Program-made: the position numbers and the translations under genes
Origin: Patescibacteria group bacterium
GTDB lineage: Bacteria; Patescibacteriota; Minisyncoccia; Phycocordibacterales; UBA9973
Direction of reading: 5' to 3'
NCBI GenBank assembly: GCA_018816985.1
Contig: JAHIVA010000049.1
Location: 2,466 to 66,465 of the forward strand
Length of the DNA: 64,000 nucleotides
In this document: one piece after another, positions 8,293 through 63,681 of the stretch
Position numbering within the stretch: position 1 is the first letter of the stretch
How the letters are laid out: each line of letters starts with the position of its first letter
The notes under the pieces: model-generated
What the model was told of the DNA's origin: nothing
The model's input: only the letters and a program-made list of their open reading frames with translations
The model's database searches: none

Positions 8293-10203
8293 CTAAGCTT
8301 TTATTTCTTCTTTCCTTTTCAATAATATACCATAAGCAGTTAAGATTTTTTCATATTCTTCCTGTTCTAAAGTTTCCACTTCAATCAATTTCAAAGCAAT
8401 AGCGGTAAACGCTTTTTTATGTTCAGCTAATACTTTTTGCGCGGTTTTTAATCCATCGTCAATAATTCTTGAAACTTCCCCATCCACTTTCGTAGAAACA
8501 GTTTCCGAAAATTCTTTTCCCGCTATTTCACCATATTGAGGACGACCACCAGAGTCAACCAAAGCTATTGGACCGATCACATCCGACATTCCCCATCTCG
8601 TTACCATCGCCCGAGCTAAATTCGTCGCCACTTGCAAATCACTTGATGGTCCGGTTGTGATATCTCCGAAAATCATTTGCTCTGCCACATAACCACCAAG
8701 TGACATAGCAATATCATCAATAAATTCTTTTTTTGATTGTAGGCGTCGCTCTTCGAGTGGCAATTTCAAAGTATAACCTCCGGCATTTCCTCGGGCAATA
8801 ATAGAAACTTTATGTACTGGGTCAGCATAAGGAAGCACAGAAGCCACAATGGCATGTCCGGCTTCATGATAAGCGGTAATTTCTTTTTCCTTTTTAGAAA
8901 GCAAATGACTTTTACGCTCAGGACCCAACATTACTTTCTCAATTGCACGGATTAAATCAAATTGAAAAACTTTCTTACGATTCTCCCGAGCCGCCAAAAT
9001 TGCGCCTTCATTCATCAATGAATACAAATCTGCTCCAGAAAAACCTGGCGTCCGTTCAGCCACTAATTTCAAATTAATGTCTTCGGCTAGTGGCTTTTTG
9101 AAAGCGTGAATTTTAAGTATTTCTTCGCGATCCGCGCGATCTGGTAAATCAAGAATTACTTTTCGGTCAAAACGTCCAGGACGAATAAGCGCCGGGTCCA
9201 GTACATCCGGTCGATTAGTCGCCGCCATAACAATAACTTTATCATTTGGTTCGAAACCGTCCATTTCCACCAAAATTTGGTTTAAGGTCTGTTCACGTTC
9301 ATCATTTCCCCCGCCGAAACCTCCCCCACGGGTACGCCCAATAGCGTCTATTTCATCCACAAAGATAATTGCCGGAGCTGCTTTTTTGGCCATTTTAAAA
9401 AGATCCCGCACACGAGAAGCCCCAACCCCAACAAACATTTCCACGAACTCACTTCCAGAAAGATGAAAAAACGGCACCGAAGCCTCTCCGGCTACCGCCC
9501 GCGCCAACAAAGTCTTACCTGTCCCCGGAGCTCCTGTCAAAATTACACCTTTTGGTATCCTAGCCCCAATATCCAGAAACTTTTTTGGGCTTTTTAAAAA
9601 ATCCACAATTTCTTTTAATTCTTCTTTTGCTTCTTTACACCCGGCCACATCTTTAAAAGTTACCTTATTTACCTTATCATCCGGATTAGTAATACGCGCC
9701 TTGGACTGGCCAAAAGTAAAAGCCTGCATACCGGCACCTTTTACCTGCCTAGATAAATACCAGAAGAAAAATACAATAAAAACTATTGTTAATAAAAGAG
9801 AAAGATTATTTAAAAGAAAATACATAAAACCACTTTCATCTTTTATTTGAATATCAGTTTTAGCCAAAGCCGATGCGGTCACTCCGTAATCAGAAAGCGT
9901 TTGTGAAAGCGGTGAATTGACTTCTTTTTTAGATTCCTTCACCTCATCATTTTGATAAGTGATAGTTAGACGATCACCTTCCACCACGACAGTTTTTATC
10001 TCTCCCGCCACAATACTGTTTGCCAATTCGGAAATTGAAACTTGAGGAGTAACTTTTCCGTCTCCAGATACAATTAAATAGAGTGCCGTAATCAGCATAA
10101 AAAAAAGCAAGGCACCAGCAATATTGGCTCCGAATTTTGTTTTTTTAGGAGTCTTTTTACCTTTGTTTTGTGGTTCTTTTTGATTTAAAAAATTAAAATC
10201 CAT
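8293..10203 (-). CDS. ftsH: ATP-dependent zinc metalloprotease FtsH
   Basis: Walker A GAPGTGKT, an AAA+ domain and the HEAGH zinc site. The start is set at MDFNFLNQ (10203) because TATTAT lies exactly 6 nt upstream. The longer ORF runs to 10251. Confidence 0.9.
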
Positions 10204-10238
10204 TTTGAGATAATAACACAAAAAAACTAAAAAATCTA

Positions 10239-10247
10239 TGTTAAAAT
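10239..10247 (+). promoter_or_regulatory. Extended -10 (TGtTAAAAT) for smpB, 6 nt before the ATG
   Basis: TG at 10239-40, TAAAAT at 10242-47, ATG at 10254. The divergent ftsH -10 (TATTAT, complement of 10210-15) lies in the same 50-nt spacer. Confidence 0.5.
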
Positions 10248-10253
10248 ACATTT

Positions 10254-10700
10254 ATGGCTAGTTATGCAGAAAATCGCAAAGCGAGGTTTAATTATGAATT
10301 CTTGGAAAAATACGAAACCGGTATTGAGCTTTTGGGTACGGAAGTGAAGTCTGTACGCAATAGCCAAATGTCACTTGAAGGAGCTTTTGTCATTATTCGT
10401 GGAGGTGAAGCATTTTTAATCAATGCAAATATTCCTCCCTTCCAATCGAAAAATGCGCCAAAAGATTATGACCCACTGCGTAACCGAAAACTTTTACTGA
10501 CCAAAAAAGAAATTATTGAATTAGCCGGAAGCGAGAAAAATAAAAGTTTGACAATAGTACCAATTTCAGTGTATAATAAAAATAGAAAAATTAAAGTGGA
10601 AATTGCTCTAGTAAAAAGCAAAAAGCAATTAGACAAAAGAGAAACGATCAAGAAACGTGAAACTGATCGGGAGATTAGGCGCGAATATAAAGAACGTTGA
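10254..10700 (+). CDS. smpB: SsrA-binding protein SmpB
   Basis: 148 aa. NRKARFNYEFLEKYETGIEL..GTEVKS is the classic SmpB N-terminus, and the tmRNA gene follows 12 nt later. Confidence 0.9.
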   Translation: MASYAENRKARFNYEFLEKYETGIELLGTEVKSVRNSQMSLEGAFVIIRGGEAFLINANIPPFQSKNAPKDYDPLRNRKLLLTKKEIIELAGSEKNKSLTIVPISVYNKNRKIKVEIALVKSKKQLDKRETIKKRETDREIRREYKER

Positions 10701-10712
10701 AAACACAAATAT

Positions 10713-11111
10713 GGGGATGCCAGGCATAGACAGTTGGTCTATTGTTATTGATGCATACCGAGCATGAACATAATCTCGTAAAAATTTGTTCAAATGTTAA
10801 TTGCAAAATTGACTGCTAAAGCAAAAGCTGTATTTTCTCCATACTTCGGTATGAATGATTTCGCTTTCGCTTCAGTTTCCGCTTCGGCGTAAACTGATGT
10901 CTCCCTTATAGACTTCCGATATATAAGAAGGGGCATAATATTATCGGGATAGGAAAAAGATTGCTCTAACTTTTTTCCAAAACAAAGGAGCTCGATTAAA
11001 AAATATTTGGCTCGTTTAAGAATTTTTTAATTTAAACAAAAAAAGCGTGCTATGTATGTAGACTTCTTTACAAAAATCTTCTGCACGGGGATTCGATTTC
11101 CCCCATCTCCA
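10713..11111 (+). ncRNA. ssrA: tmRNA (ssrA)
   Basis: The 5' GGGGATG pairs with the 3' CATCTCC, including a G3:U70 pair. T arm is GGGGA-TTCGATT-TCCCC and the discriminator is A. The internal tag frame GCA AAA ... GCT TCG GCG TAA (10803-10892) ends in ..SASA. CCA is not encoded. Confidence 0.85.
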
Positions 11112-11259
11112 CTGCTTCGCTAAAGCTTCGCAGTGCACAGCACAAGAAATTTAGCGCAAAAACTCTCCTAGTAAAGAGGGTTTTTGATTTTTAGCATAAA
11201 AATAAGCAGTGAGTCCTGCGAAGCCTTGGCGTAGCAGGGCCACATGCTACAATTTATTT

Positions 11260-11499
11260 ATGTATTATGTCTACATACTAAAAAGCAAAAAAGACGGTTC
11301 GTGCTATAAAGGAATAACGGAAAACTTGAAGAAAAGAATATATGATCATAACCACGGCTCCAATAAATATTCTTCTACAAAATCTCCATTTGAGTTAATT
11401 TGGTATTGTGCATTTCTAGACAAAAAGAAAGCCTTAGATTTTGAAAAATATATAAAACAAGGCTCTGGTTTTGCTTTTGTTAATAAAAGATTAATTTAA
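11260..11499 (+). CDS. GIY-YIG nuclease-family protein (UPF0213-like)
   Basis: MYYVYILKSKKDGSCYKGITENLKKRIYDHN carries the GIY..YIG motifs. The start was chosen because TGcTACAAT lies 6 nt upstream. The upstream part of the ORF (from 11209) is rejected. Confidence 0.75.
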   Translation: MYYVYILKSKKDGSCYKGITENLKKRIYDHNHGSNKYSSTKSPFELIWYCAFLDKKKALDFEKYIKQGSGFAFVNKRLI

Positions 11500-11562
11500 A
11501 TTTAGATAAGTAAATTATCGCAATCCATTTTCCACCATAAGAATTGTTGTTTGAATAAAATT

Positions 11563-11970: not shown

Positions 11971-12307
11971 AATTTTAATTATAACATTTTTATTTAGGGT
12001 TAATTAGATAATTTTTTGCTTCTTTTAAAAAAGCAATATCTCTTGGAACAATATAAGCACTTCCTTAGGCCTATTTTTTTTATTTAGTTATTTAACATCA
12101 TTAACTTCGTTAACATCCTAGAGAGTGAGGGTGTAAAGAGTGGTTCTATTGGTGTTGGTATTTATCCTATTTTAGTAATAAACTATCATTTGAGAGGATT
12201 CTGGGAACACTCAACCATTACCAAGTGTTAACGATCTTAAGACTCGAACATACATCAGGTTCCAGTAAATAAGTTCTAACGTCATTTATTAGTTTCCACA
12301 AACAAAA

Positions 12308-12347: not shown

Positions 12348-12373
12348 ATTAATGTTGTTATAAATAAAAAAGT

Positions 12374-12408: not shown

Positions 12409-12606
12409 TCAGGCAAGGAAAAAGTATACAGGCATAGCCGTAAGGGCTCCAGTCGCGACGGCTGCCCAAAAAGTCAGGGAGAGCATGTCGTCCGCCCAAA
12501 CATCGCAACGAGCGAGCCATTCCCGAACTGCCTTGGTCCGGGAAAACCCCTCAAGGGAAGTCACCGAAACCGCTATAAAAATAACGATCGCCACTGCAAT
12601 AACCAC
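12409..12606 (-). CDS. Small two-TM hydrophobic protein on a G+C-rich island (function unknown)
   Basis: AAGGAGGTGAT lies 4 nt before a GTG start (12606). The 65-aa product VVIAVAIVIFIAVSV...LSLTFWAAVATGALTAMPVYFFLA has two hydrophobic segments. A terminator follows. An alternative ATG is at 12639. Confidence 0.4.
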   Translation of the reverse strand: MVIAVAIVIFIAVSVTSLEGFSRTKAVREWLARCDVWADDMLSLTFWAAVATGALTAMPVYFFLA

Positions 12607-12661
12607 TGTAATCACCTCCTTTCTATATTCATTATGCATAATTTTAATCTAAAGTAAATAT

Positions 12662-12690
12662 TTGACTTCCTAGCTCGAATACGCTATTAT
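12662..12690 (+). promoter_or_regulatory. Sigma70-like promoter of infC-rpmI-rplT (TTGACT-17-TATTAT)
   Basis: TTGACT at 12662-67, a 17-nt spacer, and TATTAT at 12685-90, 28 nt before the infC start. Confidence 0.6.
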
Positions 12691-12718
12691 CTCTTTAGTT
12701 AAGACTTACTTATATCAA

Positions 12719-13222
12719 TTGCGCGAAAGAATAAACAACCAAATACGGGCGAAGGAACTTCGGGTTTTAGACAGTGAAAACAAAAATCTCGGTGTTTTGA
12801 GCATTAAAGATGCTCTAGAATTGGCTCAAAGTAAGAATTTAGATTTAATCGAGATATCCCCGAACGGCAATCCCCCGATTGCCAAGTTAATGGATTTTGG
12901 AAAGTACCAGTATGAAGCCAATAAAAAATTAAAAAAGGCCAAGGCTGGAGCAAGTAGAACAGAAACCAAGTCAATTCAAATTAAAATAGGCACCGGAGAC
13001 CATGATTTGGAATTAAAAGCGAAAACTGCTTCAAAATGGATTAAGGAGGGACACAGAATCAAAGTTGAACTTTTCCTTGCTGGTCGCGCAAAATATATGG
13101 ATGAAAAATTTTTAAAAGAACGTTTAGACAGAGTGTTACATTTAATCACTGAAGATTATAAAATATCAGATGCATATAAAAGAGGTCCAAAAGGTTTAAC
13201 TACCACCATAGAAAAAAAATGA
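12719..13222 (+). CDS. infC: Translation initiation factor IF-3 (TTG start)
   Basis: INNQIRAKELRVLDSENKNLGVLSIKDALELAQSKNLDLIEISPNGNPPIAKLMDFGKY matches IF-3. A non-AUG start is typical for infC. Confidence 0.9.
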   Translation: MRERINNQIRAKELRVLDSENKNLGVLSIKDALELAQSKNLDLIEISPNGNPPIAKLMDFGKYQYEANKKLKKAKAGASRTETKSIQIKIGTGDHDLELKAKTASKWIKEGHRIKVELFLAGRAKYMDEKFLKERLDRVLHLITEDYKISDAYKRGPKGLTTTIEKK

Positions 13223-15791: not shown

Positions 15792-16217
15792 TTATACAGT
15801 AATTTTTTCTGTAGGGATACTTCGCCTAAAAACATAAAATAAAGCAAAACTTCCTCCAGCTAAATCAAAGAAAATATCAGAAATAGTATCTAGTAAATTA
15901 AAAGGGGTTTTTCCAATATAATTATTAACATAAATCTCAAAAATTTCCCAAGAAATTCCCAAAAATAGTACAAATAAAAGAATTTTCCAAGTTAACTTAA
16001 AATCTATCTTCTCAAGTGACAATTGAAAAATAGGCAAATATTTTGTAGAAAAAAACCAGAAAAAAAACAAACCCACCCAAAAGCCTCCCAAAAAATGCAT
16101 CGGCATGTCAAACCACCAAATAGAATAATACCAATAAAATTTTTGGGCCATAATATCTGCCGTAAAAATAAAAAACATCATAAATACTAGATGTTTTAAA
16201 AGCCTTTCTCTTTTCAT
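15792..16217 (-). CDS. Hypothetical 4-TM membrane protein
   Basis: 141 aa, aromatic-rich and hydrophobic. No family recognised. Confidence 0.4.
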   Translation of the reverse strand: MKRERLLKHLVFMMFFIFTADIMAQKFYWYYSIWWFDMPMHFLGGFWVGLFFFWFFSTKYLPIFQLSLEKIDFKLTWKILLFVLFLGISWEIFEIYVNNYIGKTPFNLLDTISDIFFDLAGGSFALFYVFRRSIPTEKITV

Positions 16218-16459
16218 TATTTTATTTTAACACATTTTTAAGAAAAAATCCGCCATTGCGGAGTTCTTCTTAGGACTATTTCTGATGTATTACCATAGCT
16301 TAATAGCTAGGTGGGTGTTAGACACGAGAAACCAAGGTTAAACGTGATCGAAACTCCCATAAAATAGTGTTCTAGGTAATAACCGGAAATAACCCTACTA
16401 AAAGTATAATCTCTAAAAAAATAAAAGCAACTAGACAGAAGAGTTTTTTTGTTTTTAAA

Positions 16460-17044: not shown

Positions 17045-17091
17045 ATTAACTATTCTAGCAGAAAAAAATACTTTTGCAAAAGTTAATTCTC

Positions 17092-20547: not shown

Positions 20548-20569
20548 TATTCTAATTATACAATAAAAT

Positions 20570-22615: not shown

Positions 22616-22637
22616 ATGTGTTATAATAGCACAAATT

Positions 22638-25734: not shown

Positions 25735-25744
25735 TTTATTGTTA

Positions 25745-25790
25745 TCCCTATGTCGGACTTAGGGGAATTCCCCTAAGTCCGACATAGGGA
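25745..25790. repeat. Family A palindrome copy 1 (46-bp perfect palindrome)
   Basis: TCCCTATGTCGGACTTAGGGGAA / TTCCCCTAAGTCCGACATAGGGA. It fills the rplR-rplF spacer. Confidence 0.9.
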
Positions 25791-32397: not shown

Positions 32398-32406
32398 AAT
32401 GATTTT

Positions 32407-32456
32407 GTTCCCTAAGTCGAACTTAGGGGAAATCCCCTAAGTTCGACTTAGGGAAC
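32407..32456. repeat. Family A palindrome copy 3 (24-bp arms, 2-nt centre)
   Basis: GTTCCCTAAGTCGAACTTAGGGGA-aa-TCCCCTAAGTTCGACTTAGGGAAC in the rplW-rplD spacer. Confidence 0.9.
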
Positions 32457-32459
32457 TAT

Positions 32460-33119
32460 TTAACCTCTGGATTCTAAAAATTTAACTGCTTCGACTGGAT
32501 TTTCTATTAAAAGATATTGGTGGTTTAAAACATCTAATGGATTTAAGTTTTTTAGAAAAACTATTTGAAGCTGAGGCAAATTTCTAAAACTCTTTTCTAT
32601 TTTTTCATCACGCCCAAAAAGAGCTGTTAGGACTCGAGCTTTCTTTGAACTGCCCAGCGGTTTCAACCCAGAAGCTTTGGCTAAATTTTTCATAACTTCC
32701 ACTGCAGATTTTGTTTTTATTGAAGAGGTAGAAAGAGTATTAATAAAAATAATTTCTCCATCTTTAAACTTTTTAGAAAGAACTGAAAATAAAGCTTGCG
32801 CACGCATTTTCTTGGATATTTTTCTTTTGTAATTTTTTTCAGCCAAGGGTCCGTGAGTAACTCCTCCACCAACCCAAATAGGACTACGAGAAGACCCGTG
32901 TCGGGCTCGTCCGGTTCCTTTTTGTTTCCAGGGTTTCTTGCCTCCACCACGCACTTCTCCACGATCTTTAGTGTCGGCTGTTCCGGCGCGTTTATTTGAA
33001 CGCATTCCTTCCACTACTTGATGCACTAAATCTGCCCGCCATTTAGCAGCAAAAATTTTAGCAGGAAGATCTATTGATCCAGCCACTGCACCTTTTTGAT
33101 CATATATTTTTGTTTGCAT
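32460..33119 (-). CDS. rplD: 50S ribosomal protein L4
   Basis: MQTKIYDQKGAVAGSIDLP...KPWKQKGTGRARHGS. An alternative start lies at 33131. Confidence 0.9.
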   Translation of the reverse strand: MQTKIYDQKGAVAGSIDLPAKIFAAKWRADLVHQVVEGMRSNKRAGTADTKDRGEVRGGGKKPWKQKGTGRARHGSSRSPIWVGGGVTHGPLAEKNYKRKISKKMRAQALFSVLSKKFKDGEIIFINTLSTSSIKTKSAVEVMKNLAKASGLKPLGSSKKARVLTALFGRDEKIEKSFRNLPQLQIVFLKNLNPLDVLNHQYLLIENPVEAVKFLESRG

Positions 33120-33781: not shown

Positions 33782-34240
33782 CATCATTTTCACATCAATA
33801 TCAACACCAGAAGGAAGAGTTAAATTAGTCAAAGCTTCAACGGTCTTAGGATTTGGATTGATGATATCAATTAATCTTTTATGCACTCTTATTTCAAATT
33901 GTTCTCGACTATTTTTGTAGATAAAAGCAGAACGATTAACTGTATATTTTTTAATTTCAGTTGGGAGTGGCACCGGACCTACTATCTGCGCATCATAACG
34001 AATAGCAGTGTCTATAATTTGTTTGACTGAGCTGTCAAGTATTTTACTTTCATAAGCTCGTACCCGAATGCGAAGTATCACCTTATTCTCACCTCCGACG
34101 ACATGAGTAGGTTTCTCTTTTTCTTTTTTTGAAGAAACTCTCGGTGTCTTAGGTGCTTTTACGGTTTTCACTGTTGTGGTTTTTGCCACTTTAGGTTTTT
34201 TTGTTTTTGTTTCTGTTATTGCCATGAACTTTTTCTCCAT
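33779..34240 (-). CDS. rpsJ: 30S ribosomal protein S10 with a Lys-rich N-terminal extension of about 50 aa
   Basis: The core is [25 protein letters not shown]...GPVPLPTE. The start is at 34240 or 34225, and the first ATG lies inside the palindrome. Confidence 0.85.
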
Positions 34241-34279
34241 AAGTTAGACTTAGGGGAATTCCCCTAAGTCTAACTTATG
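34238..34279. repeat. Family A palindrome copy 4 (42-bp perfect palindrome)
   Basis: CATAAGTTAGACTTAGGGGAA / TTCCCCTAAGTCTAACTTATG in the tuf-rpsJ spacer. Confidence 0.9.
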
Positions 34280-34283
34280 ATTT

Positions 34284-35477
34284 TTAACCAAGAATTTTTG
34301 TAACAACTCCTGCACCGACGGTCTTACCTCCCTCACGAATAGCGAATCTTTGTGATTCTTCAAGCGCAACCGGAGTAACTAACTTAACGGTAATTTTTAC
34401 TGTATCACCCGGCATTACCATTTCTGTCCCTTCGGCCAAAGTCACATCACCAGTCACGTCTGTCGTTCGGATATAAAATTGAGGTTTATAACCTTTAAAG
34501 AAAGGAGTATGACGTCCACCTTCTTCTTTTTTCAAAACGTAAATTTCACAGGTAAAATTATCATGCGGAGTAACAGTCCCCGGCTTAGCAAGAACTTGTC
34601 CGCGGGTAATGTCTTCTTTCTTTAAACCCCGAAGAAGAATTCCAGCATTATCACCCGCCATCCCTTCCTGAAGATTTTTATTAAACATTTCAATTCCGGT
34701 TACTGTTGTCTTTTGAGTTGGCTTAATTCCAACAACCTCTACTTCTTCTCCAACTTTCACTAACCCTCTTTCAATTTTTCCGGTAACCACTGTTCCTCGT
34801 CCTTCAATGGAAAAAATATCTTCAACTGGCATCAAAAAAGGTTTCTTGATATCACGCTCCGGAATTGGTATGTAAGTATCAAGAGCATCTACCAATTCAA
34901 GAATTTTCTTGGCCCATTCATCATCTAGAGACTTTGCTTCAATACCTTTTAGAGCAGAACCACGAATAACTGGAGCTCCGGCCCCGTCAAATCCTTGCTT
35001 AGTCAAAAGCTCACGAATTTCTTCTTCCACTAAGTCAATCATATCCTTGTCGTCAACCATATCGCACTTATTCAGAAAAACAATAATCTTTGGTACTCCT
35101 ACTTGCTTGGCCAAAAGAACATGTTCACGAGTCTGGGGCATTGCGCCATCAGTTGCAGCCACTACGAGAATAGCACCATCCATTTGAGCGGCGCCAGTAA
35201 TCATATTTTTTATGTAGTCAGCGTGTCCTGGAGCATCAATGTGCGCATAGTGACGCGCGTCCGTCGCATACTCATTGTGAGAAATGTTAATAGTAATTCC
35301 TCGAGATTTTTCCTCAGGAGCATTATCAATTTGATCAACTCCTCGAAGACGAACCGTCTTACCAGCCATATTTAACACGTGCAAAATCGCAGCGGTTAAA
35401 GTGGTCTTGCCATGGTCCACGTGACCAATGGTGCCGACATTAATGTGCGGCTTATCTCTCTTAAATTCTTCTGCCAT
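34284..35477 (-). CDS. tuf: Elongation factor Tu
   Basis: [21 protein letters not shown] and NKCD. Confidence 0.95.
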
Positions 35478-35656: not shown

Positions 35657-35914
35657 TTATTTATAAATATCATGGTCGCCTACCGAATGAAAATAGATTA
35701 CTTTTTCCGAAGCAAATTCAAATATTATTCTATAGCTATATGATATAGAAAAAGCCCAGTTAGGATATAATCTACCGGAAAGTTTATGTGTCTCAAGTGA
35801 TGGATGAAAAGGATTTTTTCTAAAAATTTTCTCTTTTTTCTTTGCGGATAATTTTAATTCAGCAGTCAGCTTTCTATATTCACGCTCAAATTTTGAAGAG
35901 TAAATTATCTGCAT
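35657..35914 (-). CDS. RelE/ParE-superfamily type II toxin
   Basis: 85 aa. FEREYRKL....H.LSG....W.F.I.YSYRIIF resembles RelE/YafQ/ParE-like toxins. It lies 12 nt downstream of the antitoxin gene. Confidence 0.7.
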   Translation of the reverse strand: MQIIYSSKFEREYRKLTAELKLSAKKKEKIFRKNPFHPSLETHKLSGRLYPNWAFSISYSYRIIFEFASEKVIYFHSVGDHDIYK

Positions 35915-35926
35915 AAAAATATAATT

Positions 35927-36142
35927 TTAATCCAGGTCAGCTAGTGATCTAAGAATTTTTCCCTCCCCACGAGCTATTTCGGCCCGACTTTCACGAATTT
36001 CTTTTACAAGTTGTTCTTCTTTCCAGCTTCTTACCGCATCTCTAAAAAACTCACTCACGGAAGCGTAATTGCCCGCTTTGACTTGTTTTTCTACTTCATG
36101 CTTTAGCTCTTTCGGTATTGAAATATTTAAGGTTGTTCTCAT
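35927..36142 (-). CDS. Ribbon-helix-helix (ParD/CopG-like) antitoxin
   Basis: 71 aa. The N-terminal MRTTLNISIPKELKHEVEK looks like an RHH beta-strand and SVSEFFRDAVR like its helix. Confidence 0.7.
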   Translation of the reverse strand: MRTTLNISIPKELKHEVEKQVKAGNYASVSEFFRDAVRSWKEEQLVKEIRESRAEIARGEGKILRSLADLD

Positions 36143-36148
36143 ATATCA

Positions 36149-36178
36149 AGTGTAGCACATTGTGCTACAGGGTGTCAA
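36149..36178 (-). promoter_or_regulatory. TA-module promoter (TTGACA-18-TACACT-6-ATG) with an embedded palindromic operator
   Basis: The palindrome TGTAGCAC-att-GTGCTACA (36151-36169) sits between the -35 and -10 boxes, as expected for RHH autoregulation. Confidence 0.5.
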
Positions 36179-36447
36179 ATCAAGACCCCGTCTAATAATT
36201 TAAATTCAAATGGAATTTCTTTGGCATTTTTTTTGCCTTTGTATTTTTCTTCCAATTCGCGTTTTTTGGCTTCCAATTCTTCCATAGTAAAACCCATTTC
36301 TTTTATTTTTTGTTCTCCTAATTTATAAAATGTAGGAGAGAAACCAACGGTTTTAATTCCAAGGTCTTTTCTACCAACACCGATAAACCAATCAAAAGGT
36401 ATTTCCTTTTTCTGTTCCGATTTTATGTTTGGACCTTCGGTGCTCAT
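36175..36447 (-). CDS. Hypothetical 90-aa protein
   Basis: MSTEGPNIK... with the internal repeat EIPFDWF / EIPFEFK. The start was chosen because TATAAT lies 6 nt upstream. Confidence 0.45.
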   Translation of the reverse strand: MSTEGPNIKSEQKKEIPFDWFIGVGRKDLGIKTVGFSPTFYKLGEQKIKEMGFTMEELEAKKRELEEKYKGKKNAKEIPFEFKLLDGVLI

Positions 36448-36463
36448 TTTTTTATTATATAAC

Positions 36464-36487
36464 AAAAAACACCCTTAGGTGTTTTTT
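36464..36487. terminator. Bidirectional intrinsic terminator after fusA
   Basis: AAAAAACACC-ctta-GGTGTTTTTT. Confidence 0.65.
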
Positions 36488-43070: not shown

Positions 43071-43182
43071 ATTGGGTCACTCCCAATATGTTATAGATGA
43101 GAATGATGTTTCAAGAATAGCATTGTTGCGTTATTTTGTCAATAATTTGTTTCTGTTTCTTATTTGTTGCTATAATGATAAT

Positions 43183-44538
43183 ATGCAAAATAAAGATATA
43201 AAAAATCTCAAACATAGCCAGGCACAAATCAAAGGTGGAGGAAAGGTAATCATACTCAATGCTGGGTCTGTGATAGGACCGGAAGCAGAAGCAATGCTTC
43301 AAGCACTTCATTCCAGATCTACCGGAGGACTAGAAAGCCATCTCGAAATACTAGCCGACAAAGGACCAGATAATTTTATGAAAAATTTTTATGTCGGATA
43401 CGGACATAAATCAATTGGTGACTGTGGTAGCACTTCAATATTTATTGAAGGAATCTCTATGTTGGCGGCAAAAGCAATTCAAGACTGGCCCCTTTATTCA
43501 GGACAAGAATCTTCAACCAGATATGTTGATTTCAAAACTCAGCCATTTAAAAACCCAATTGGCACTAAAGAAGGAAAAGAAATTTTAGAATCATATAGAA
43601 AATTTTATACCGAAGCACTAGAACAAACTAAAGAATACTTAAAAATACAATTCCCCCTAGGCTCTGGAGAAAAAGAGAGCATATATAATAAAGCAATCGA
43701 CGCTAGAGCTTTCGATATATTAAGAGGATTTCTACCGGCCGGATCAACTACAAACATTGCCTGGCACACGAATTTAAGACAAGCTGCCGATAAAATAATA
43801 CTACTTCGTCATCACCCATTAATGGAGGTTAGAAACTTAGCAGAAGCAATAGAGCAAGCTTTACGTCTGGCTTTTCCAAATTCATTTGGCCATAAACATC
43901 ATAAAAATACAGAAAATTATAATAAAAAATGGATGGAAAAAGATTACTACTATCACGATAAAAATTGCCCGAATTTTAAAATGGTTAACAATTCAATAAA
44001 TAAAAATTTACTTTCAAGAAAAATTTTAGAGGAAAGATCAATAAAAACCGAACTGCCCAAGCATCTCGCTGAAGCCGGAACCTTGCAATTTAAATTTTTG
44101 TTGGACTTTGGATCATTCCGTGATATTCAAAGACACCGAGCAGTAATTCAAAGAATGCCCCTTTTAACCACAGAAATTAGTTTTGGGAAATGGTATTTGG
44201 AAGAATTACCAAAGAAATTAAAAGTTAAAGCCAAAGAATTCATTAAAAAACAAGAAGGGAAAATAAAAAAATTAAAAATTTCAAAAGAAGAAAAGCAATA
44301 TTACATAGCCATGGGTTACAATACATCTAATAGATTGACGGGGAATCTTCCTGCTTTAATTTATTTAGCAGAATTGAGATCTACTCGTTTTGTACATCCA
44401 ACTTTAAGAAACAAAGCGAAAATGATAGCTAATACCTTATTAAAACTTTTCAAAAAATCTGGTTTAGTGATACATCTAGACAAAGAAATGGATAGATTTG
44501 ATATTAAACGTGGAGAGCACGATATCGTCCTAAGGTAA
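43183..44538 (+). CDS. thyX: ThyX-like FAD-dependent thymidylate synthase, long form (atypical signature)
   Basis: Thy1-like features include a single RHR (FRDIQRHRAVIQRMP). The start is set at MQNKDIK because TGcTATAAT lies 6 nt upstream. Confidence 0.55.
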   Translation: MQNKDIKNLKHSQAQIKGGGKVIILNAGSVIGPEAEAMLQALHSRSTGGLESHLEILADKGPDNFMKNFYVGYGHKSIGDCGSTSIFIEGISMLAAKAIQDWPLYSGQESSTRYVDFKTQPFKNPIGTKEGKEILESYRKFYTEALEQTKEYLKIQFPLGSGEKESIYNKAIDARAFDILRGFLPAGSTTNIAWHTNLRQAADKIILLRHHPLMEVRNLAEAIEQALRLAFPNSFGHKHHKNTENYNKKWMEKDYYYHDKNCPNFKMVNNSINKNLLSRKILEERSIKTELPKHLAEAGTLQFKFLLDFGSFRDIQRHRAVIQRMPLLTTEISFGKWYLEELPKKLKVKAKEFIKKQEGKIKKLKISKEEKQYYIAMGYNTSNRLTGNLPALIYLAELRSTRFVHPTLRNKAKMIANTLLKLFKKSGLVIHLDKEMDRFDIKRGEHDIVLR

Positions 44539-45384: not shown

Positions 45385-45420
45385 GTCTTGATTATACGCT
45401 AAAATTAAAAATAGAAAAGT

Positions 45421-51693: not shown

Positions 51694-52263
51694 TCAAGGT
51701 CTTAGTATTTTACTGGTTCCATCTTTATGCAATTCAATTACCTTGGACGCTTGGCTAATGATTTCCCCTCCATCTACATATAAATCAACCGCATTACTAA
51801 AATATTTTTTTGCTTCAAATATATTTTGAGCCGGAGCCAATCCTTCGGGATTGGCTGAAGGTGCAACGAGGGGCCCTGTTTGCAATAATAATTTTCTAAG
51901 ATTTTCTTGAGCAGGCACCCTAAAAGCCAAAGTTTTTGTCCCCCGATGTAAATACAAAAGTGTTTCATCGGAACAATCCAGAATAATACTTACCGGACCA
52001 GGCCAGTATTTTTTTAATATATCTTTCTGTTTTTCGGATAAAATAATAGAAAATTTTTCTAATTCGCCAATCTCTCCAATTAGAATAATGAAGGGTTTTT
52101 CCGGCGCACGTTTTTTTATATTATAAATACGTAAAACAACTGCCGAACTCAATGCTTGCCCAACTATTCCATAAATAGTATCCGTCGGCATTACCACCAC
52201 TCCTTTTTCTTTTAAAACTTTTATTAAATTTTCATCATTCCAAATATTTTGCAATAACTGCAT
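51694..52263 (-). CDS. tsaC: L-threonylcarbamoyladenylate synthase (TsaC/YrdC/Sua5 family)
   Basis: VVVMPTDTIYGIVG...LAFRVP...PSANPEG. Confidence 0.8.
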   Translation of the reverse strand: MQLLQNIWNDENLIKVLKEKGVVVMPTDTIYGIVGQALSSAVVLRIYNIKKRAPEKPFIILIGEIGELEKFSIILSEKQKDILKKYWPGPVSIILDCSDETLLYLHRGTKTLAFRVPAQENLRKLLLQTGPLVAPSANPEGLAPAQNIFEAKKYFSNAVDLYVDGGEIISQASKVIELHKDGTSKILRP

Positions 52264-52284
52264 AAGATATATTATAATACAAAA

Positions 52285-52743
52285 ATGCTAAAAGATATTG
52301 TTAAGTTTTTCGACAAGCTAGAGGACAAAATAAGGGGAAGATTGAGTCGTTATCCTATTTTATATGCAATCATTGGTGGTGTTGGCATAGTTCTTTTTTG
52401 GCGTGGAGTTTGGCATACTGCAGATTTTATAACTAATCTTGTTTTTTCCTTTCAACAAAACTCTTCTATTGACTTAAACAATCTGCCTTGGTGGGACGGA
52501 CCCTTATCTCTAATTTTAGGTAGTATCTTGCTTTTATCTACTGGATTATTTGTTTTCGGTTTTATCGGCAGTGAAATAATAATCTCCGGCTTAAAAGGAG
52601 AAAAGAAATTGGCTGAAAAAACAGAAGAGGAAGTAAAAATAGAAACTGGCACAATAAAAGAAATAAAAAAAGAAGTAAGTGAAATATCTCATCGTTTAAA
52701 TGATATTGAGAAAAATTTAGAGGATGATATGGAAAAAAAATAA
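52285..52743 (+). CDS. Hypothetical membrane protein with a charged coiled-coil tail
   Basis: 152 aa with 2-3 TM. TATAAT lies 6 nt upstream of the ATG. Confidence 0.45.
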   Translation: MLKDIVKFFDKLEDKIRGRLSRYPILYAIIGGVGIVLFWRGVWHTADFITNLVFSFQQNSSIDLNNLPWWDGPLSLILGSILLLSTGLFVFGFIGSEIIISGLKGEKKLAEKTEEEVKIETGTIKEIKKEVSEISHRLNDIEKNLEDDMEKK

Positions 52744-52873: not shown

Positions 52874-53086
52874 TTAATTTTTAACTAGATCATAAAAAGC
52901 AGCAAAAATAAAAATAATTTGCAAAACTATAAATATAGTATCTTTGATGTGGATACTATAAATTTCCAAACAAACTCCCCCTATTATATATAGAGTATTT
53001 TGATGTTTTCTGTTTTTCAATAATAAACCAACGGAAATTAGAATAAGTCCGATAGCTCCTATTAATTTGAAAATATTTTTATCCAT
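52874..53086 (-). CDS. Small 2-TM membrane protein
   Basis: MDKNIFKLIGAIGLILISVGLLL... The longer ORF start would overlap tRNA-Leu. Confidence 0.4.
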   Translation of the reverse strand: MDKNIFKLIGAIGLILISVGLLLKNRKHQNTLYIIGGVCLEIYSIHIKDTIFIVLQIIFIFAAFYDLVKN

Positions 53087-53095
53087 AATATTTAC

Positions 53096-53182
53096 TGGTG
53101 CGCGAGGGGAGACTTGAACTCCCACGTCCGTGAGGACACTAGCACCTCAAGCTAGCCTGGCTACCAGTTACAGCACTCGCGC
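53096..53182 (-). tRNA. tRNA-Leu, anticodon GAG (type II, CCA encoded)
   Basis: Acceptor is GCGCGAG/CTCGCGC and anticodon arm is CTAGC-TTGAGGT-GCTAG. It has a long variable arm and the T arm GGGAG-TTCAAGT-CTCCC, ending in ACCA. Confidence 0.85.
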
Positions 53183-56099: not shown

Positions 56100-56771
56100 T
56101 TATTTTACCATTTTTTTGAATTCTTTTGGAATAGCTGATTCTACTTTTAAAGTTTCACCTTTTAGATTTTTAAACTCTATAGACTTTGCATGAAGCGCTA
56201 GACGTTTTAAGCTTTTCAGACAAGGGTTGTTAGGGTTATAAAGAGAATCACAGACAACTGGATGATTTAGATATTTCAAATGCACGCGGATTTGATGCGT
56301 TCGGCCGGTTTTCGGTTTTATTTCTAAATAAGTAAATTTTCCATATTTTTTATCTTCAAACCTTTTTAAAACTTTATACTCAGTAATAGCCTCACGCATT
56401 TTCCCCCTTGCACCGCGGCCAGACAAATACCGACGAAAATCTTTCGGACTCCGGCCTATTGGTTTATTGATAAAACCATGATCATTTTTCACAAAACCAG
56501 ACACAATGGCAACATAAGTTTTTTTCACTTCCCGATTTTGGAATTGTTTTTTAAGAAATTCATGCACCCTATCGCTCTTAGCCAAGAGCATCACGCCCGA
56601 AGTCTCTTTATCTAAGCGGTGTACTATTTTTATTTTGGGATATTTTTTTAAAAATAAATCAAGAATTGTTTTTTCTTCACTCCTCTCATCTGGATGCACT
56701 AAAATACCTGAGGGCTTTTCTATGGCTAAAATATTAGAATCTTCATATAGAATTTTTATTTTTATTGACAT
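56100..56771 (-). CDS. RluA-family pseudouridine synthase
   Basis: HRLDKETSGVMLLAK catalytic motif and GRTHQIRVH. Confidence 0.85.
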   Translation of the reverse strand: MSIKIKILYEDSNILAIEKPSGILVHPDERSEEKTILDLFLKKYPKIKIVHRLDKETSGVMLLAKSDRVHEFLKKQFQNREVKKTYVAIVSGFVKNDHGFINKPIGRSPKDFRRYLSGRGARGKMREAITEYKVLKRFEDKKYGKFTYLEIKPKTGRTHQIRVHLKYLNHPVVCDSLYNPNNPCLKSLKRLALHAKSIEFKNLKGETLKVESAIPKEFKKMVK

Positions 56772-56774
56772 CTC

Positions 56775-56849
56775 TGGTGCCCTTGGTAGGAATCGAACCT
56801 ACATCAAAGCCTTAGAAGAGCTTCGTTCTATCCATTGAACTACAAGGGC
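56775..56849 (-). tRNA. tRNA-Arg, anticodon UCU (CCA encoded)
   Basis: Acceptor is GCCCTTG/CAAGGGC, loop is CTTCTAA and T arm is GTAGG-TTCGATT-CCTAC. Confidence 0.85.
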
Positions 56850-56853
56850 CATG

Positions 56854-56926
56854 TGCGCGGTGAGGGACTTGAACCCCCGACCTTCTCAGTGTAAATGAGT
56901 TGCTCTACCAACTGAGCTAACCGCGC
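56854..56926 (-). tRNA. tRNA-Val, anticodon UAC
   Basis: Acceptor is GCGCGGT/ACCGCGC, D arm is GCTC-AGTTGGTA-GAGC, loop is TTTACAC and T arm is GGGGG-TTCAAGT-CCCTC. Confidence 0.85.
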
Positions 56927-59476: not shown

Positions 59477-59524
59477 ATTTATAATTATATCAATAAACAA
59501 GGAACATAAACAAGTTTACTTATC

Positions 59525-60271: not shown

Positions 60272-60290
60272 ATACAAATTTGAAGTATCT

Positions 60291-60328: not shown

Positions 60329-60361
60329 GATTAAAATAAGCTCGGTAAAAATTAAATAACT

Positions 60362-60446: not shown

Positions 60447-60491
60447 CTTTTACAAAAACGAGCATAATTGTTTGTGATATAATTGAAAATT

Positions 60492-61460
60492 ATGAATATT
60501 TTCTATCCAATACAATTACTAGTTGACTGGCTAACTTATACAGTTTTTAATATTATTCCAAATACATTACTTGCCACAGCTGTAAATTTTTTTATTTTTG
60601 ACACCTTAAAAATATTTATTCTTCTTTCTGTTATTATTTTTATTGTTTCAATAATCCGATCATATTTGCCACCAGAAAAAATAAGGGCAATTTTATCTCG
60701 CAAAAATAAATATATTAATAATATCTTGGCTGCACTTTTGGGAATTATCACCCCTTTTTGCTCTTGCTCGGCTATTCCTTTATTTTTAGGTTTCGTTCAG
60801 GCAGGGGTGCCACTTGGGACCACTTTTTCTTTTCTGGTAGCTTCACCAATGATTAATGAAGTTGCCTTGGTCCTTCTTCTCGGCCTATTTGGTTGGAAAA
60901 TCGCATTTATTTATCTTGTAAGTGGTTTAATAATTACTATTCTTTCAGGAATAATAATAGATAAATTAAAAATAGAAAATTTAGTTGAGTCTTTTGTCTA
61001 CCAAAATTCAATTAATATAAATATTGATTTACCAACCTTGACCAAAAAAGAAAGAATCTACTATGCCCTAGATTACACTTTGGGTATTATTAAAAAAGTC
61101 TGGCCTTACATTTTAATAGGCATAGGATTGGGTGCTTGGATACATGGATATATTCCCGCAAATTTCTTGGTCCAGTACGCAGGTAGTGATAAGTGGTATG
61201 CTGTACCCTTTGCTGTTCTTATTGGTATTCCGTTATATTCAAATGCGGCCGGAATTATCCCCTTAATATCCGCCTTAATGGAGAAAGGAGTCTCTCTCGG
61301 CACCACACTTGCTTTTATGATGTCTGTAACTGCTTTATCATTACCTGAATTTATGATTTTAAAAAAAGTAATGAAAATAAAACTTATTTTCATTTTCGCC
61401 GGAATTGTAACTATTGGAATAATATTTACGGGTTATCTGTTTAATTGGATTTTAAAATAA
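60492..61460 (+). CDS. Permease of the ArsP/DUF318 (PF03773-like) family
   Basis: ITPFCSCSAIPLFLGFVQAGVPLGTTFSFLVASPMINEVAL. TGaTATAAT lies 8 nt upstream of the ATG. Confidence 0.6.
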   Translation: MNIFYPIQLLVDWLTYTVFNIIPNTLLATAVNFFIFDTLKIFILLSVIIFIVSIIRSYLPPEKIRAILSRKNKYINNILAALLGIITPFCSCSAIPLFLGFVQAGVPLGTTFSFLVASPMINEVALVLLLGLFGWKIAFIYLVSGLIITILSGIIIDKLKIENLVESFVYQNSININIDLPTLTKKERIYYALDYTLGIIKKVWPYILIGIGLGAWIHGYIPANFLVQYAGSDKWYAVPFAVLIGIPLYSNAAGIIPLISALMEKGVSLGTTLAFMMSVTALSLPEFMILKKVMKIKLIFIFAGIVTIGIIFTGYLFNWILK

Positions 61461-61491
61461 ATTAAAAACTATTTTCTTTTAAATATGAACC

Positions 61492-61525
61492 AAAACAAAA
61501 CCCCTTTAAAAAGGGGTTTTGTTTT
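61492..61525. terminator. Bidirectional intrinsic terminator (15-bp stem)
   Basis: AAAACAAAACCCCTT-taaa-AAGGGGTTTTGTTTT between the convergent permease and small ORF. Confidence 0.7.
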
Positions 61526-61526
61526 T

Positions 61527-61640
61527 TTATTGAGCCGGAGTTTCCGGAGTTGGAATTGAAGCTTCTGGAGTTGGAGTCTCTGGTTTTGGGCAAGTACAAG
61601 GAGCATTGCCGCAAACAGAACATTTTGTTGTATCGTCCAT
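61527..61640 (-). CDS. 37-aa Cys/Pro/Thr-rich peptide (not in ORF track)
   Basis: MDDTTKCSVCGNAPCTCPKPETPTPEASIPTPETPAQ. The ORF ends at the terminator and is locally G+C-richer than its flanks. Confidence 0.35.
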   Translation of the reverse strand: MDDTTKCSVCGNAPCTCPKPETPTPEASIPTPETPAQ

Positions 61641-61750
61641 ATTGTTAAATAAATTAATGATAAAAGTGCTAATAGCTAGTCGACTAAACTGGCTCTTATC
61701 TCACTATTTTTTAGTATACACTAAAAAATTAATAAAAACAAATAAAAAAC

Positions 61751-61780
61751 TTGTTTATGCTTCTCACTTATTGTTATAAT
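61751..61780 (+). promoter_or_regulatory. Promoter TTGTTT-18-TGtTATAAT, 6 nt before the ATG at 61787
   Basis: Read directly from the sequence; implies a leaderless transcript. Confidence 0.5.
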
Positions 61781-61786
61781 TAATAG

Positions 61787-62260
61787 ATGGAGATAATAAA
61801 AAAGTCTAATGAAAAATTAGTTTGGTCCGCTTTGGAGTATGAAGAAAGAGACCGAAATCCAGACTGGTTTTGGGCACTTGGTATTATTGTAGTCACTAGC
61901 TCAATTGCTGCAATTATTTTTGAAAATTATTTTTTTGCAGTTTTACTTATCCTCTCTGGAATTTTATTGGGATTTTTTGCGATTAAAAAACCGGACGTAG
62001 TTACCTATGAATTAAACTCAAGGGGATTAATGATTAGAAACCGTCTTTACCCCTATGAAAATATTAAATCTTTTTGGGTTCAAGAAGCAAAACCGACACT
62101 TTTTATTCATTCAGAAAGAGCGTTTATGCCAATTATCTCTATGCCGATAGATGAAACAATTATCGCCGATATTCATTCAATTATGCTTTCAAAAAATATT
62201 GCGGAAGTTGAAATGAAAGAGCATGCTGCCGAAAAAATTATGGAAGTTCTTGGATTTTAA
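61787..62260 (+). CDS. Hypothetical 2-TM membrane protein
   Basis: 157 aa. No family recognised. Confidence 0.45.
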   Translation: MEIIKKSNEKLVWSALEYEERDRNPDWFWALGIIVVTSSIAAIIFENYFFAVLLILSGILLGFFAIKKPDVVTYELNSRGLMIRNRLYPYENIKSFWVQEAKPTLFIHSERAFMPIISMPIDETIIADIHSIMLSKNIAEVEMKEHAAEKIMEVLGF

Positions 62261-62271
62261 CTCCGGCTAAA

Positions 62272-62817
62272 CTAGCCCTGTTTTTTCAACCAACTAATCA
62301 TCTTATTAAAAGTACCAGAGCCAGCTTCTCCATCTGCATTTAATCCCTGGTCTTTTTGAAAAGCAGTTACCGCTTTTTGGGTACTTGTTCCATAATCATT
62401 GTCAACTTTATCAGAAGTATTGTTGTAAATATTTAGAAAATTTTGTACCGTACCCACTCGTGTGCCTCTAGATTTTAATTTCATTAAAACATTATTGGTT
62501 ATAAGATTTTGCAATTCATTTATCAAGCTTTGATTTTTATAGGTAACTGGTTGAGTAGGAGCTGGAGTCACTGTCACTGGAATCGGCTCTGAAATGGAGC
62601 CTTCTATTGATTGTGCCTGTGATAAAGTTTTTAATTCTTCCGTTAGATCTACTAATTGTTTTGCTAAATCCTCATTTTCTTTTTGCAGTTGCCCTATTTT
62701 TTGACTAGCTGCAAATTCAGCACCCGACTGCAAAGTGGAAATAGACCAATACGCAATAAGTCCAAGCACTCCTAAAACTACAACTGAAAATAAGGCAAAT
62801 TTTAAATTATCCATCAT
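62272..62817 (-). CDS. Membrane-anchored protein with a C-terminal peptidoglycan-binding (PG_binding_1-like) domain
   Basis: VQNFLN....DNDYGTSTQKAVTAFQKDQGLNADGEAGSGTF. The start is set at MMDNLKF because TTGGCA-17-TAGAAT lies 7 nt upstream. Confidence 0.6.
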   Translation of the reverse strand: MMDNLKFALFSVVVLGVLGLIAYWSISTLQSGAEFAASQKIGQLQKENEDLAKQLVDLTEELKTLSQAQSIEGSISEPIPVTVTPAPTQPVTYKNQSLINELQNLITNNVLMKLKSRGTRVGTVQNFLNIYNNTSDKVDNDYGTSTQKAVTAFQKDQGLNADGEAGSGTFNKMISWLKKQG

Positions 62818-62881
62818 ATATACCATTCTACTAAAAAATTTCAATATTGCCAAAGTTTCAACCCTAAATAGTGTCAATGTG

Positions 62882-62953
62882 TGCCCTCAGTAGGAATCGA
62901 ACCTACATCGCAAACTCCGCAAGCTCGCATTCTATCCATTAAACTATGAGGGC
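62882..62953 (-). tRNA. tRNA-Arg, anticodon GCG
   Basis: Acceptor is GCCCTCA/TGAGGGC and anticodon arm is CGAGC-TTGCGGA-GTTTG (two G:U pairs). T arm is GTAGG-TTCGATT-CCTAC. Confidence 0.75.
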
Positions 62954-63040
62954 CTATATTTAAATCCTTTTACAATTTTATGCTAACAGTTTTTAACTAA
63001 AAATTCAAATTAAAAAATATTTCCAAAAAAATAAATATAC

Positions 63041-63069
63041 TTGATTCGTATACAAAATTGAGATATCAT
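63041..63069 (+). promoter_or_regulatory. clpP promoter TTGATT-17-TATCAT, 6 nt before the ATG
   Basis: Read directly from the sequence. Confidence 0.5.
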
Positions 63070-63075
63070 ATAGAT

Positions 63076-63681
63076 ATGTTAATACCAACTGTTATCGAAA
63101 AATCACAATTTGGAGAAAGAGCCTATGATATATATTCTCGCCTTTTGCGTGAAAGAATTGTTTTTTTAGCCGGACCAATAGACGACAATGCTGCCAATAT
63201 TGTTATCGCCCAACTTCTTTTTCTTGAATCCGAAGACGCAAAAAAAGATATTTTTCTTTATATAAATTCTCCCGGGGGATCGGTTACCTCAACAATGGCC
63301 ATTGTCGACACAATGAACCATGTGCGTCCAGATATTTCCACTTTTTGTGTCGGACTCGCTGCTTCCGGTGCAGCTATAATTCTATCAGCTGGTAAAAAAA
63401 GTAAACGCTATATCTTGCCTAATGCCGAAGTTATGATTCACCAGCCAATGGGTGGAGTAGAAGGCCAAGCAACGGATATCGCCATCACCGCCAAACATAT
63501 TTTAAAAACAAGAGACAGTTTAAATAAACTTTTAGCAAAAAATACTGGTAAAGACCTGCCTCAAGTAGAAAAAGACGTGGAACGAGATTTCTTTATGGAT
63601 GCGACAGAAGCTAAAAAATATGGAATTGTTGATGAAATAGTCACTAAATCAAAAAATTCCACTCCGAAACAAGAAAACTAG
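63076..63681 (+). CDS. clpP: ATP-dependent Clp protease proteolytic subunit
   Basis: [18 protein letters not shown]...[11 protein letters not shown]...MIHQP. Confidence 0.9.

Follow-up and report, generated by a model that had tools for sequence, protein, structure and literature searches.

A promoter-like -10 box at fixed distance from start codons points to frequent leaderless initiation in a Candidatus Nomurabacteria genome without anti-Shine-Dalgarno sequence

Animal mitochondria use leaderless mRNAs, lack Shine-Dalgarno (SD) sequences and punctuate their transcripts with tRNAs according to the Ojala-Montoya-Attardi model. Among bacteria, frequent leaderless transcription is known from the genomes of GeneMarkS-2 'group C', namely Actinobacteria (Mycobacterium tuberculosis, M. 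smegmatis, Streptomyces) and Deinococcus-Thermus (D. deserti) (PMC6028130; PMC4633059), where leaderless transcripts occur in 25–50% of operons (PMC6028130). This survey names no Patescibacteria ('Candidatus' occurs 0 times in PMC6028130). Loss of the anti-SD sequence CCUCC has been published for a subgroup of Parcubacteria that overlaps the group lacking ribosomal protein uL1 (Tsurumaki, Saito, Tomita and Kanai 2022, RNA 28:1041, PMC9297842). That study reports rRNA and ribosomal protein losses and states that SD helices probably do not form; leaderless mRNAs ('leaderless' occurs 0 times) and promoter placement are not mentioned there. Here we analyze a stretch of 64,000 nucleotides (the window; assembly GCA_018816985.1, contig JAHIVA010000049.1, C23:2466-66465 in the contig numbering used below) and the genome bin to which it belongs (1.02 Mb, 136 contigs, 36.8% GC). 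The source organism, a groundwater-type bacterium with a very small genome, is a member of Candidatus Nomurabacteria within the candidate phyla radiation (Patescibacteria). The element in question is a -10 hexamer of the form TAnnnT, often extended to TGnTAnnnT, which ends six or seven nucleotides before an ATG (spacings N6 and N7). A preliminary description of the window had read it as a sign of leaderless mRNAs.

In the window the loose pattern TANNNT-N6-ATG occurred 47 times, compared to 48.5 ± 7.3 times in dinucleotide shuffles. It was thus not enriched, and since it only reached the level of the shuffles the loose hexamer alone proves nothing in AT-rich DNA. In contrast, the extended pattern TGNTANNNT-N6-ATG was found 9 times versus 2.66 ± 1.55, and 0 of 100 shuffles reached 9. 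For a genome-wide spacing profile -10-like motifs were counted at every distance from the ATGs opening open reading frames (ORFs) of at least 100 codons. Here, TATAAT was observed 44 times at N6, 17 times at N7 and about 3 times at other spacings; the corresponding counts for TGNTANNNT were 74, 48 and about 6. The profile of short-ORF ATGs showed no peak genome-wide, and only 0.85% of the internal in-frame ATGs carried TANNNT at N6. Counted over the whole genome with no ORF filter, TGNTANAAT-N6-ATG occurred 53 times compared to 6 times at N9 and 2–5 times at N3–N5. For GTG, TTG and CTG starts the N6 profile was flat genome-wide. This ATG-only peak agrees with the restriction of leaderless translation to AUG (or RUG) at position +1. 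The enrichment of a -10 hexamer at the predicted distance, proposed as a check in the preliminary description, was found at gene starts as a sharp and spacing-specific N6/N7 peak, while the loose TAnnnT in the window failed that comparison.

Promoter hallmarks were read from a set of 172 genes with TANNNT at N6, at positions outside the selection. Of these genes, 64% had T at -15, 51% had G at -14 and approximately 70% had A at -9 and -8. Further upstream, T/T/G at -35/-34/-33 was found in 62%/54%/34%, which corresponds to a -35 element separated from the -10 box by the canonical 17 nt; the relatives of ftsH exhibited a TTTCAC box at -36..-31. The unselected TG at -15/-14 together with TTG at -35 and its 17-nt spacer characterizes these elements as sigma-70 promoters of the extended -10 type (TGn plus TAnnnT, with an optional -35 element at 17 ± 1 nt). 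Transcription usually starts at the seventh base downstream of the -10 hexamer. A hexamer at -12..-7 would therefore place the start on the A of the ATG.

The distribution of the geometry was determined for 977 genes predicted by our own crude caller. The strict geometry was defined as TANNNT, N6-7 and ATG, and the background was corrected with decoy spacings. This correction replaced a position weight matrix (PWM) scan that was too small (71 genes, 23 strong hits) to give a reliable leaderless fraction. After correction, approximately 40% of the divergently transcribed genes carried the strict geometry, as did 26% of the same-strand genes with a gap of >60 nt and 31% of those with a gap of 26–60 nt. 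For genes located ≤25 nt behind the previous gene the value was 5%. The low value for these closely coupled internal genes indicates that the motif is not a general ribosome site. Judged by the divergent and gapped same-strand genes, leaderless initiation would be one of the principal modes for the first genes of transcription units, used by at least about 40% of them and by ~130–170 genes overall; the term 'default' in the preliminary description was somewhat overstated.

The geometry was also followed in related organisms, using 80 loci that matched an FtsH protein query with 80–91% identity and were titled Candidatus Nomurabacteria, Paceibacterota or Minisyncoccia. N6 was kept in 65/78 relatives for ftsH, in 52/70 for smpB and in 31/40 for the 141-aa ORF starting at 16217. 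The gene for a 921-aa coupling protein (20547) showed N6-7 in 16/16 relatives and ndk N6-8 in 20/34, compared to only 8/31 for an operon-internal control gene. At these loci the exact spacing remained constant despite variation in the discriminator and in the inner bases of the hexamer. Whole genomes from 25 other genera of the family yielded 546 occurrences at N6 versus 112 at N9, with N6 exceeding N9 in 25/25. Across 150 genomes of the phylum 2148 occurrences at N6 were counted versus 859 at N9; the source genome, with 53 versus 6, ranks near the top. The shortened ftsH start chosen in the preliminary description gained support from the relatives. From ATG 10203 onwards, the N-terminus MDFNFLN of FtsH is shared by ~80 relatives, and an in-frame stop lies ≤16 codons upstream of this ATG in 42/49. 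Furthermore, Pfam domains begin close to the proposed N-termini, at residue 1 for GIY-YIG, 3 for EamA and 5 for SmpB. The over-extension caused by longest-ORF starts in the window amounts to 16 codons in ftsH, 37 in thyX and 17 in the GIY-YIG gene.

The preliminary description had further claimed that almost no gene is preceded by an SD sequence. GGAG/GAGG was found before 7–9% of the starts in genes for which an upstream neighbour had been predicted versus 7% at internal ATGs, and before 13% (22/163) of the contig-end genes. G was depleted upstream of starts, including those of internal genes. SD motifs thus stayed at background in every gene class, in agreement with the claim. Inspection of the 16S rRNA 3' end, likewise suggested there, revealed no CCUCC: the 3' end of the genome's own 16S rRNA on contig C95 reads GGAAUAAUUCAAUUUGA / ...GUCGUGGAAUAAUUCAAUUUGA / ...GGAAGCUGGUCGUGGAAUAAUUCAAUUUGA. 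CCUCC was also absent from 10/10 informative genomes of the same family, which share the conserved tail GGAWUAAYUCAAWUUGA. In a sample of the phylum it was kept (GGAUCACCUCCUU) in 61/69 genomes with a captured 16S 3' end. A simple phylum-wide tie between anti-SD loss and the geometry was rejected, as N6 outnumbers N9 both in genomes with CCUCC (means 15.7 versus 6.5) and in those without it (13.1 versus 4.7). Among the ribosomal proteins, uL1 (PF00687, Ribosomal_L1) had no match in the genome and was found in 14/14 control genomes, and bS21 (PF01165) had no match in the genome either. bS21 is also missing from the control genomes of Thermus, Deinococcus, Thermotoga and Corynebacterium, so that both leaderless-rich phyla contain members without it.

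Several further observations concern the start regions and the rRNA. A start-codon context is common to all gene classes genome-wide, with U at -1 in 56–67%, G rare at this position (2–9%) and an A-rich stretch upstream from -8 to -3 (50–60% at internal genes); it may act as a Kozak-like signal for SD-free initiation. Genes with a strong SD were concentrated on few contigs, notably C78 (54.8% GC) and C88, and as an argument for SD use they were set aside, the high-GC contigs being read as bin contamination. Altogether ~22 contigs with more than 45% GC (75 kb; C78, C96, C97, C103, C14, C59 and others) look like contaminating or foreign DNA, and on those inspected (e.g. C78) nearly every gene is preceded by a strong AGGAG. 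C88 (37% GC), which could be a mobile element or a phage, is likewise rich in SD sequences. An exception to the contamination reading was encountered in the window, where a perfect 12-nt SD-like AAAGGAGGTGAT lies near 12610-12621 on the minus strand (within 12604-12639), 5 nt before an in-frame GTG; this GTG either opens a 65-76-aa ORF without a Pfam family or is situated within it. The sequence may be due to chance, to coding sequence or to a recently acquired gene. The 16S rRNA itself is split over contigs C95, C39 and C102, with the covariance-model match broken into 9-546, 547-873 and 874-1520. A second, differing 3' fragment (C39, GGAUCAUUUAUUUU) is also devoid of CCUCC. Two related organisms are probably mixed in the bin.

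From these results it is very probable that the genes concerned are initiated leaderless, with a sigma-70 -10 box placed for a transcription start at or near the A of the ATG. In the proposed mechanism the motif would function as the -10 element of sigma-70-type promoters, usually in the extended form TGnTAnAAT and often with TTG at -35. RNA polymerase would begin on the first base of the start codon, or no more than 1–2 nt away from it, and produce mRNAs without a 5' leader. The 5'-terminal AUG would then be bound directly by the ribosome and the initiator tRNA, as in mycobacteria, Deinococcus and haloarchaea. Both the transcription start position and this mode of ribosome recruitment we infer from sequence. 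Downstream genes, located 0–10 nt after the preceding stop codon or overlapping it (ATGA), would most likely be reached by termination-reinitiation. Between neighbouring genes on one strand, the distance from stop to start is most often -4 (47 cases) or +1 to +10; together with the A-rich, G-poor, SD-less context with U at -1, this fits such a coupling.

There are also findings that weigh against this interpretation. Even among genes that are certainly the first of their unit, only about 40% have the strict geometry. In the PWM scan of 71 first genes with unambiguous starts, 23 gave strong -10 hits and only 10 of these at N6-7; the others were located 13 to >60 nt upstream, which means that leadered transcripts exist too. 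The infC gene for initiation factor IF3 is such a leadered counter-example (Table 1). IF3 disfavours leaderless mRNAs in E. coli, and the genome encodes both IF3 and a 362-aa S1-like protein. The assignment of the transcription start to the A depends on the usual -10-to-start distance of 7 nt. T at -1 was considered as a pyrimidine(-1)/purine(+1) signature of the start site and rejected, as it is equally frequent (60–67%) at internal and non-geometry genes. The bin table gives a contamination of 8%, 22 contigs exceed 45% GC and some of these bear SD-preceded starts. Finally, the crude gene calls are a weakness of the gene-class figures.

Among the alternative explanations, the one that survives best accepts the promoters as real and questions strict leaderlessness: with RNA polymerase beginning a few nucleotides ahead of the ATG, or ribosomes initiating at a codon further downstream, the leaders would be very short or ordinary. 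About one third of the cases have N7-N8 instead of N6, and the distance from -10 box to start varies by 1–2 nt in known bacteria. Mycobacterial starts at +2 to +5 are less efficient (PMC4633059). We nevertheless regard this explanation as unlikely, given that N6 is the mode, which would put the start exactly on the A, and that Pfam domains begin right at the proposed N-termini or only a few residues behind them, with MDFNFLN kept in the relatives. Moreover, a leader of 1–2 nt would functionally still be handled as leaderless.

Still less probable is a motif acting at the RNA level, an AU-rich non-SD ribosome-binding or enhancer element (UAUAAU) within a normal leader as described for GeneMarkS-2 'group B', with transcription starting further upstream. 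A ribosome without anti-SD sequence needs some other means of recognition, an S1-like protein is encoded, and the A-rich, G-poor context with U at -1 is present in all gene classes. However, closely coupled internal genes are equally in need of a ribosome-binding site and nearly lack the motif (5% after correction). The TGn extension and the TTG at the 17-nt spacer are typical of sigma-70, and UAUAAU shows no complementarity to the 16S tail GGAAUAAUUCAAUUUGA (tails inspected by eye). In addition, compact divergent pairs such as ftsH/smpB (50 nt) and 52263/52285 (21 nt) leave no space for a farther promoter outside the neighbouring gene. The remaining idea, that TAnnnT often stands six nucleotides before ATGs by chance at 35–37% GC and that the preliminary description had picked the cases at gene starts, can draw on the shuffle-level count of the bare pattern and on decoy spacings that 'hit' 11–17% of the genes when several candidate starts are allowed, but has next to no probability in view of the extended form, the TG and -35 signals at unselected positions and the spacing kept across relatives, and is already refuted by the sharp peak confined to long-ORF ATGs.

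In addition to the promoter-made leaderless starts favoured here, a few genes abut tRNA 3' ends. For 4 of the 52 tRNAs in the genome the ATG of a Pfam-confirmed gene was located at offset 0 (contigs C45, C64, C128 and C135). These pairs are tRNA-Val/TsaD (tsaD), tRNA-Ala/PurT-like ATP-grasp, tRNA-Ser/NUDIX and tRNA-Leu/EPSP-synthase-family protein, the last of which is probably MurA. Within the window, two tRNAs stand close to a start codon (Table 1). At the junction of tRNA-Arg and the RluA-type gene there is no space for a promoter; tRNA-Val(TAC) precedes as well, so that both tRNAs (region 56771-56926, minus strand) are located ahead of the GAG-ATG of this gene. At the relatives' loci the first long-ORF ATG was found at -1..+3 for 13/140 tRNAs versus about 1 per offset elsewhere. 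The arrangement resembles the tRNA punctuation of mitochondria, and tRNA genes abutting start codons may provide a second, mitochondria-like route to leaderless mRNAs.

When compared to group C, the genome shows the same Pribnow box about 6–8 nt before the starts of first genes, with the start codon at the predicted +1. The affected share is comparable to the 25–50% of operons reported there, the arrangement is conserved in orthologues, and annotated starts need shortening. The differences are equally clear. Group C keeps the anti-SD sequence and uses SD sequences for internal and leadered genes, whereas here the anti-SD sequence is gone and SD motifs are at background, so that the other genes do not use an SD-type ribosome-binding site. 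Mycobacteria use both ATG and GTG, in contrast to the peak with ATG alone, and the promoters found here are mostly of the extended -10 type (TGn) in AT-rich DNA. With the anti-SD-lacking Parcubacteria the genome shares the absence of CCUCC and of uL1. The likeness to animal mitochondria consists of missing SD/anti-SD pairing, predicted 5'-terminal AUGs and some genes 0–3 nt after a tRNA. In contrast to mitochondria, most of these 5'-terminal AUGs would be generated by many individual promoters and not from few processed long transcripts, and ordinary bacterial operons with stop-start coupling are present. In a literature search no description of leaderless genes in Patescibacteria was found; the matches merely cite YchF, GeneMarkS-2 or signal-peptide tools. 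Thus, the proposed mechanism itself would be the known bacterial leaderless architecture, and its occurrence in the Nomurabacteria lineage, which the computations support well, was not found described.

The individual sites of the window are listed in Table 1. All nine -10/N6/ATG sites of the preliminary description were recovered with exactly the letters given there, and its six sites with a 7-8 nt spacing (ndk, NUDIX, pilM, PG-binding protein, EamA, permease) were present as well. At least 12 further starts of the same geometry in the window were absent from that first list, e.g. 16217, 45384, 53851, 56095, 41746, 20547, 22615 and 41026. The gene names were borne out by Pfam (FtsH, SmpB, GIY-YIG, RHH, Thy1, ClpP, NUDIX, NDK, PilM, PG_binding_1, EamA and an ArsP-type permease), while the Pfam search gave no family for the 90-aa ORF (36447) or for the two ORFs labelled as membrane ORFs (52285, 61787). 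The divergent ftsH and smpB promoters indeed share a single 50-nt spacer (10204-10253), in which each extended -10 box sits within the -35 region of the other promoter. The divergent neighbour of the gene at 52285, starting at 52263, has a TATAAT at N7 within the same 21-nt spacer.

Table 1. Promoter-type and tRNA elements preceding start codons in the window (positions are those of the window)
Gene or feature	Element	Position	Strand	Spacing	Start codon	Gene coordinates and remarks
ftsH	extended -10 tgtTATTAT	10210..10218	-	N6 (ctcaaa)	ATG 10203	8293-10203; Pfam Peptidase_M41 + AAA
smpB	extended -10 tgtTAAAAT	10239..10247	+	N6 (acattt)	ATG 10254	10254-10700; Pfam SmpB; back to back with ftsH promoter
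GIY-YIG	tgcTACAAT	11245..11253	+	N6	ATG 11260	11260-11499; Pfam domain from residue 1 of shortened protein
RHH (ribbon-helix-helix) protein	tgcTACACT	36149..36157	-	N6	ATG 36142	35927-36142
90-aa ORF	TATAAT	36454..36459	-	N6	ATG 36447	36175-36447
ThyX-domain protein (thyX)	tgcTATAAT	43168..43176	+	N6	ATG 43183	43183-44538
152-aa ORF	TATAAT	52273..52278	+	N6	ATG 52285	
157-aa ORF	tgtTATAAT	61772..61780	+	N6	ATG 61787	
clpP	TATCAT	63064..63069	+	N6	ATG 63076	63076-63681
ndk	tgcTAGAAT	17052..17057	-	N7	ATG 17044	Pfam NDK
NUDIX	tgtTATAAT	11978..11983	-	N7	ATG 11970	
pilM	tgaTATAAT	59484..59489	-	N7	ATG 59476	
PG_binding_1 protein	tagTAGAAT	62825..62830	-	N7	ATG 62817	
EamA transporter	TATACT	7246..7251	-	N7	ATG 7238	
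ArsP_1 permease	tgaTATAAT	60478..60483	+	N8	ATG 60492	
141-aa ORF	tgtTAAAAT	16224..16232	-	N6	ATG 16217	further site
921-aa TraG/TrwB-like coupling protein	ttgTATAAT	20555..20560	-	N7	ATG 20547	further site
dCMP/cytidine deaminase	TATAAT	45391..45396	-	N6	ATG 45384	further site
567-aa ORF	tggTAAAAT	56102..56110	-	N6	ATG 56095	further site
Adenylate kinase	tgcTATTAT	22623..22631	-	N7	ATG 22615	further site
infC (IF3)	TTGACT 12662-12667, 17 nt, TATTAT 12685-12690	12662..12721	+		TTG 12719	leader ~26 nt
tRNA-Arg(TCT)	tRNA 56775-56849, encoded CCA end (...CACCA), then GAG	56771..56849	-		ATG 56771	RluA-type pseudouridine synthase (56100-56771)
tRNA-Leu(GAG)	tRNA 53096-53182, CCA end	53086..53182	-	9 nt	ATG 53086	70-aa ORF

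Some features of the window deserve a separate description. The leadered infC has a canonical promoter, and its TTG start is reminiscent of the non-AUG starts through which infC is autoregulated in other bacteria. Directly 3' of smpB the tmRNA is encoded (Rfam RF00023, 117.6 bits; 10713-11114, plus strand), and smpB and ssrA are probably under the control of the common leaderless smpB promoter. Inside the str operon three small genes are situated between fusA and tuf (35657-36465, minus strand), namely the 90-aa ORF, the gene for the RHH protein and an ORF of 85 aa. Of these, the 90-aa ORF and the RHH gene possess their own N6 leaderless-type promoters, and the group as a whole looks like a toxin-antitoxin-like cassette that was inserted here. 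Perfect palindromes of ~44 nt (CCCTATGTCGGACTTAGGGGAATTCCCCTAAGTCCGACATAGGG and variants) are found between ribosomal protein genes at ~25735-25790, 32398-32460 and 34240-34285 on the minus strand. They end 0–12 nt before the next ATG and occur at five loci of the genome, including contigs C2 and C86; they may serve in processing or attenuation, or form a small family of repeats. A further motif, TTCGAC..(C)TCACTATAAATAAT, stands 8–11 nt before the ATGs 26349, 30388 and 38644 (minus strand), with a fourth copy in the same ribosomal protein cluster, and precedes operon-internal genes for ribosomal proteins and EF-G. Its core CTCACTATA resembles the core of T7-class promoters, and all four genomic copies of CACTATAAATA are located inside this one cluster.

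Tentatively, and as a reading that is less likely than not, the proposal can be widened to the Nomurabacteria and the other anti-SD-less Paceibacteria. These organisms might run a fully SD-independent, mitochondria-like initiation in which cistrons are reached by only three ways: an AUG made by a promoter at 6–7 nt, an AUG set free by tRNA excision, and reinitiation. Genes with true leaders, among them the TTG-initiated infC, would then be regulated exceptions. For genome annotation the finding means that gene callers which expect SD sequences or choose the longest ORF will misplace many starts in such genomes, with consequences for protein families derived from the thousands of metagenome-assembled genomes of the candidate phyla radiation. 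Promoters and transcription units of uncultured organisms, on the other hand, would become predictable straight from sequence. Since uL1, bS21 and the anti-SD sequence are missing and IF3 is kept, the lineage would offer a natural comparison system for the leaderless initiation of mycobacteria and mitochondria. The proposed architecture would also give a concrete answer to the question of how a free-living lineage still starts translation after the loss of its anti-SD sequence.

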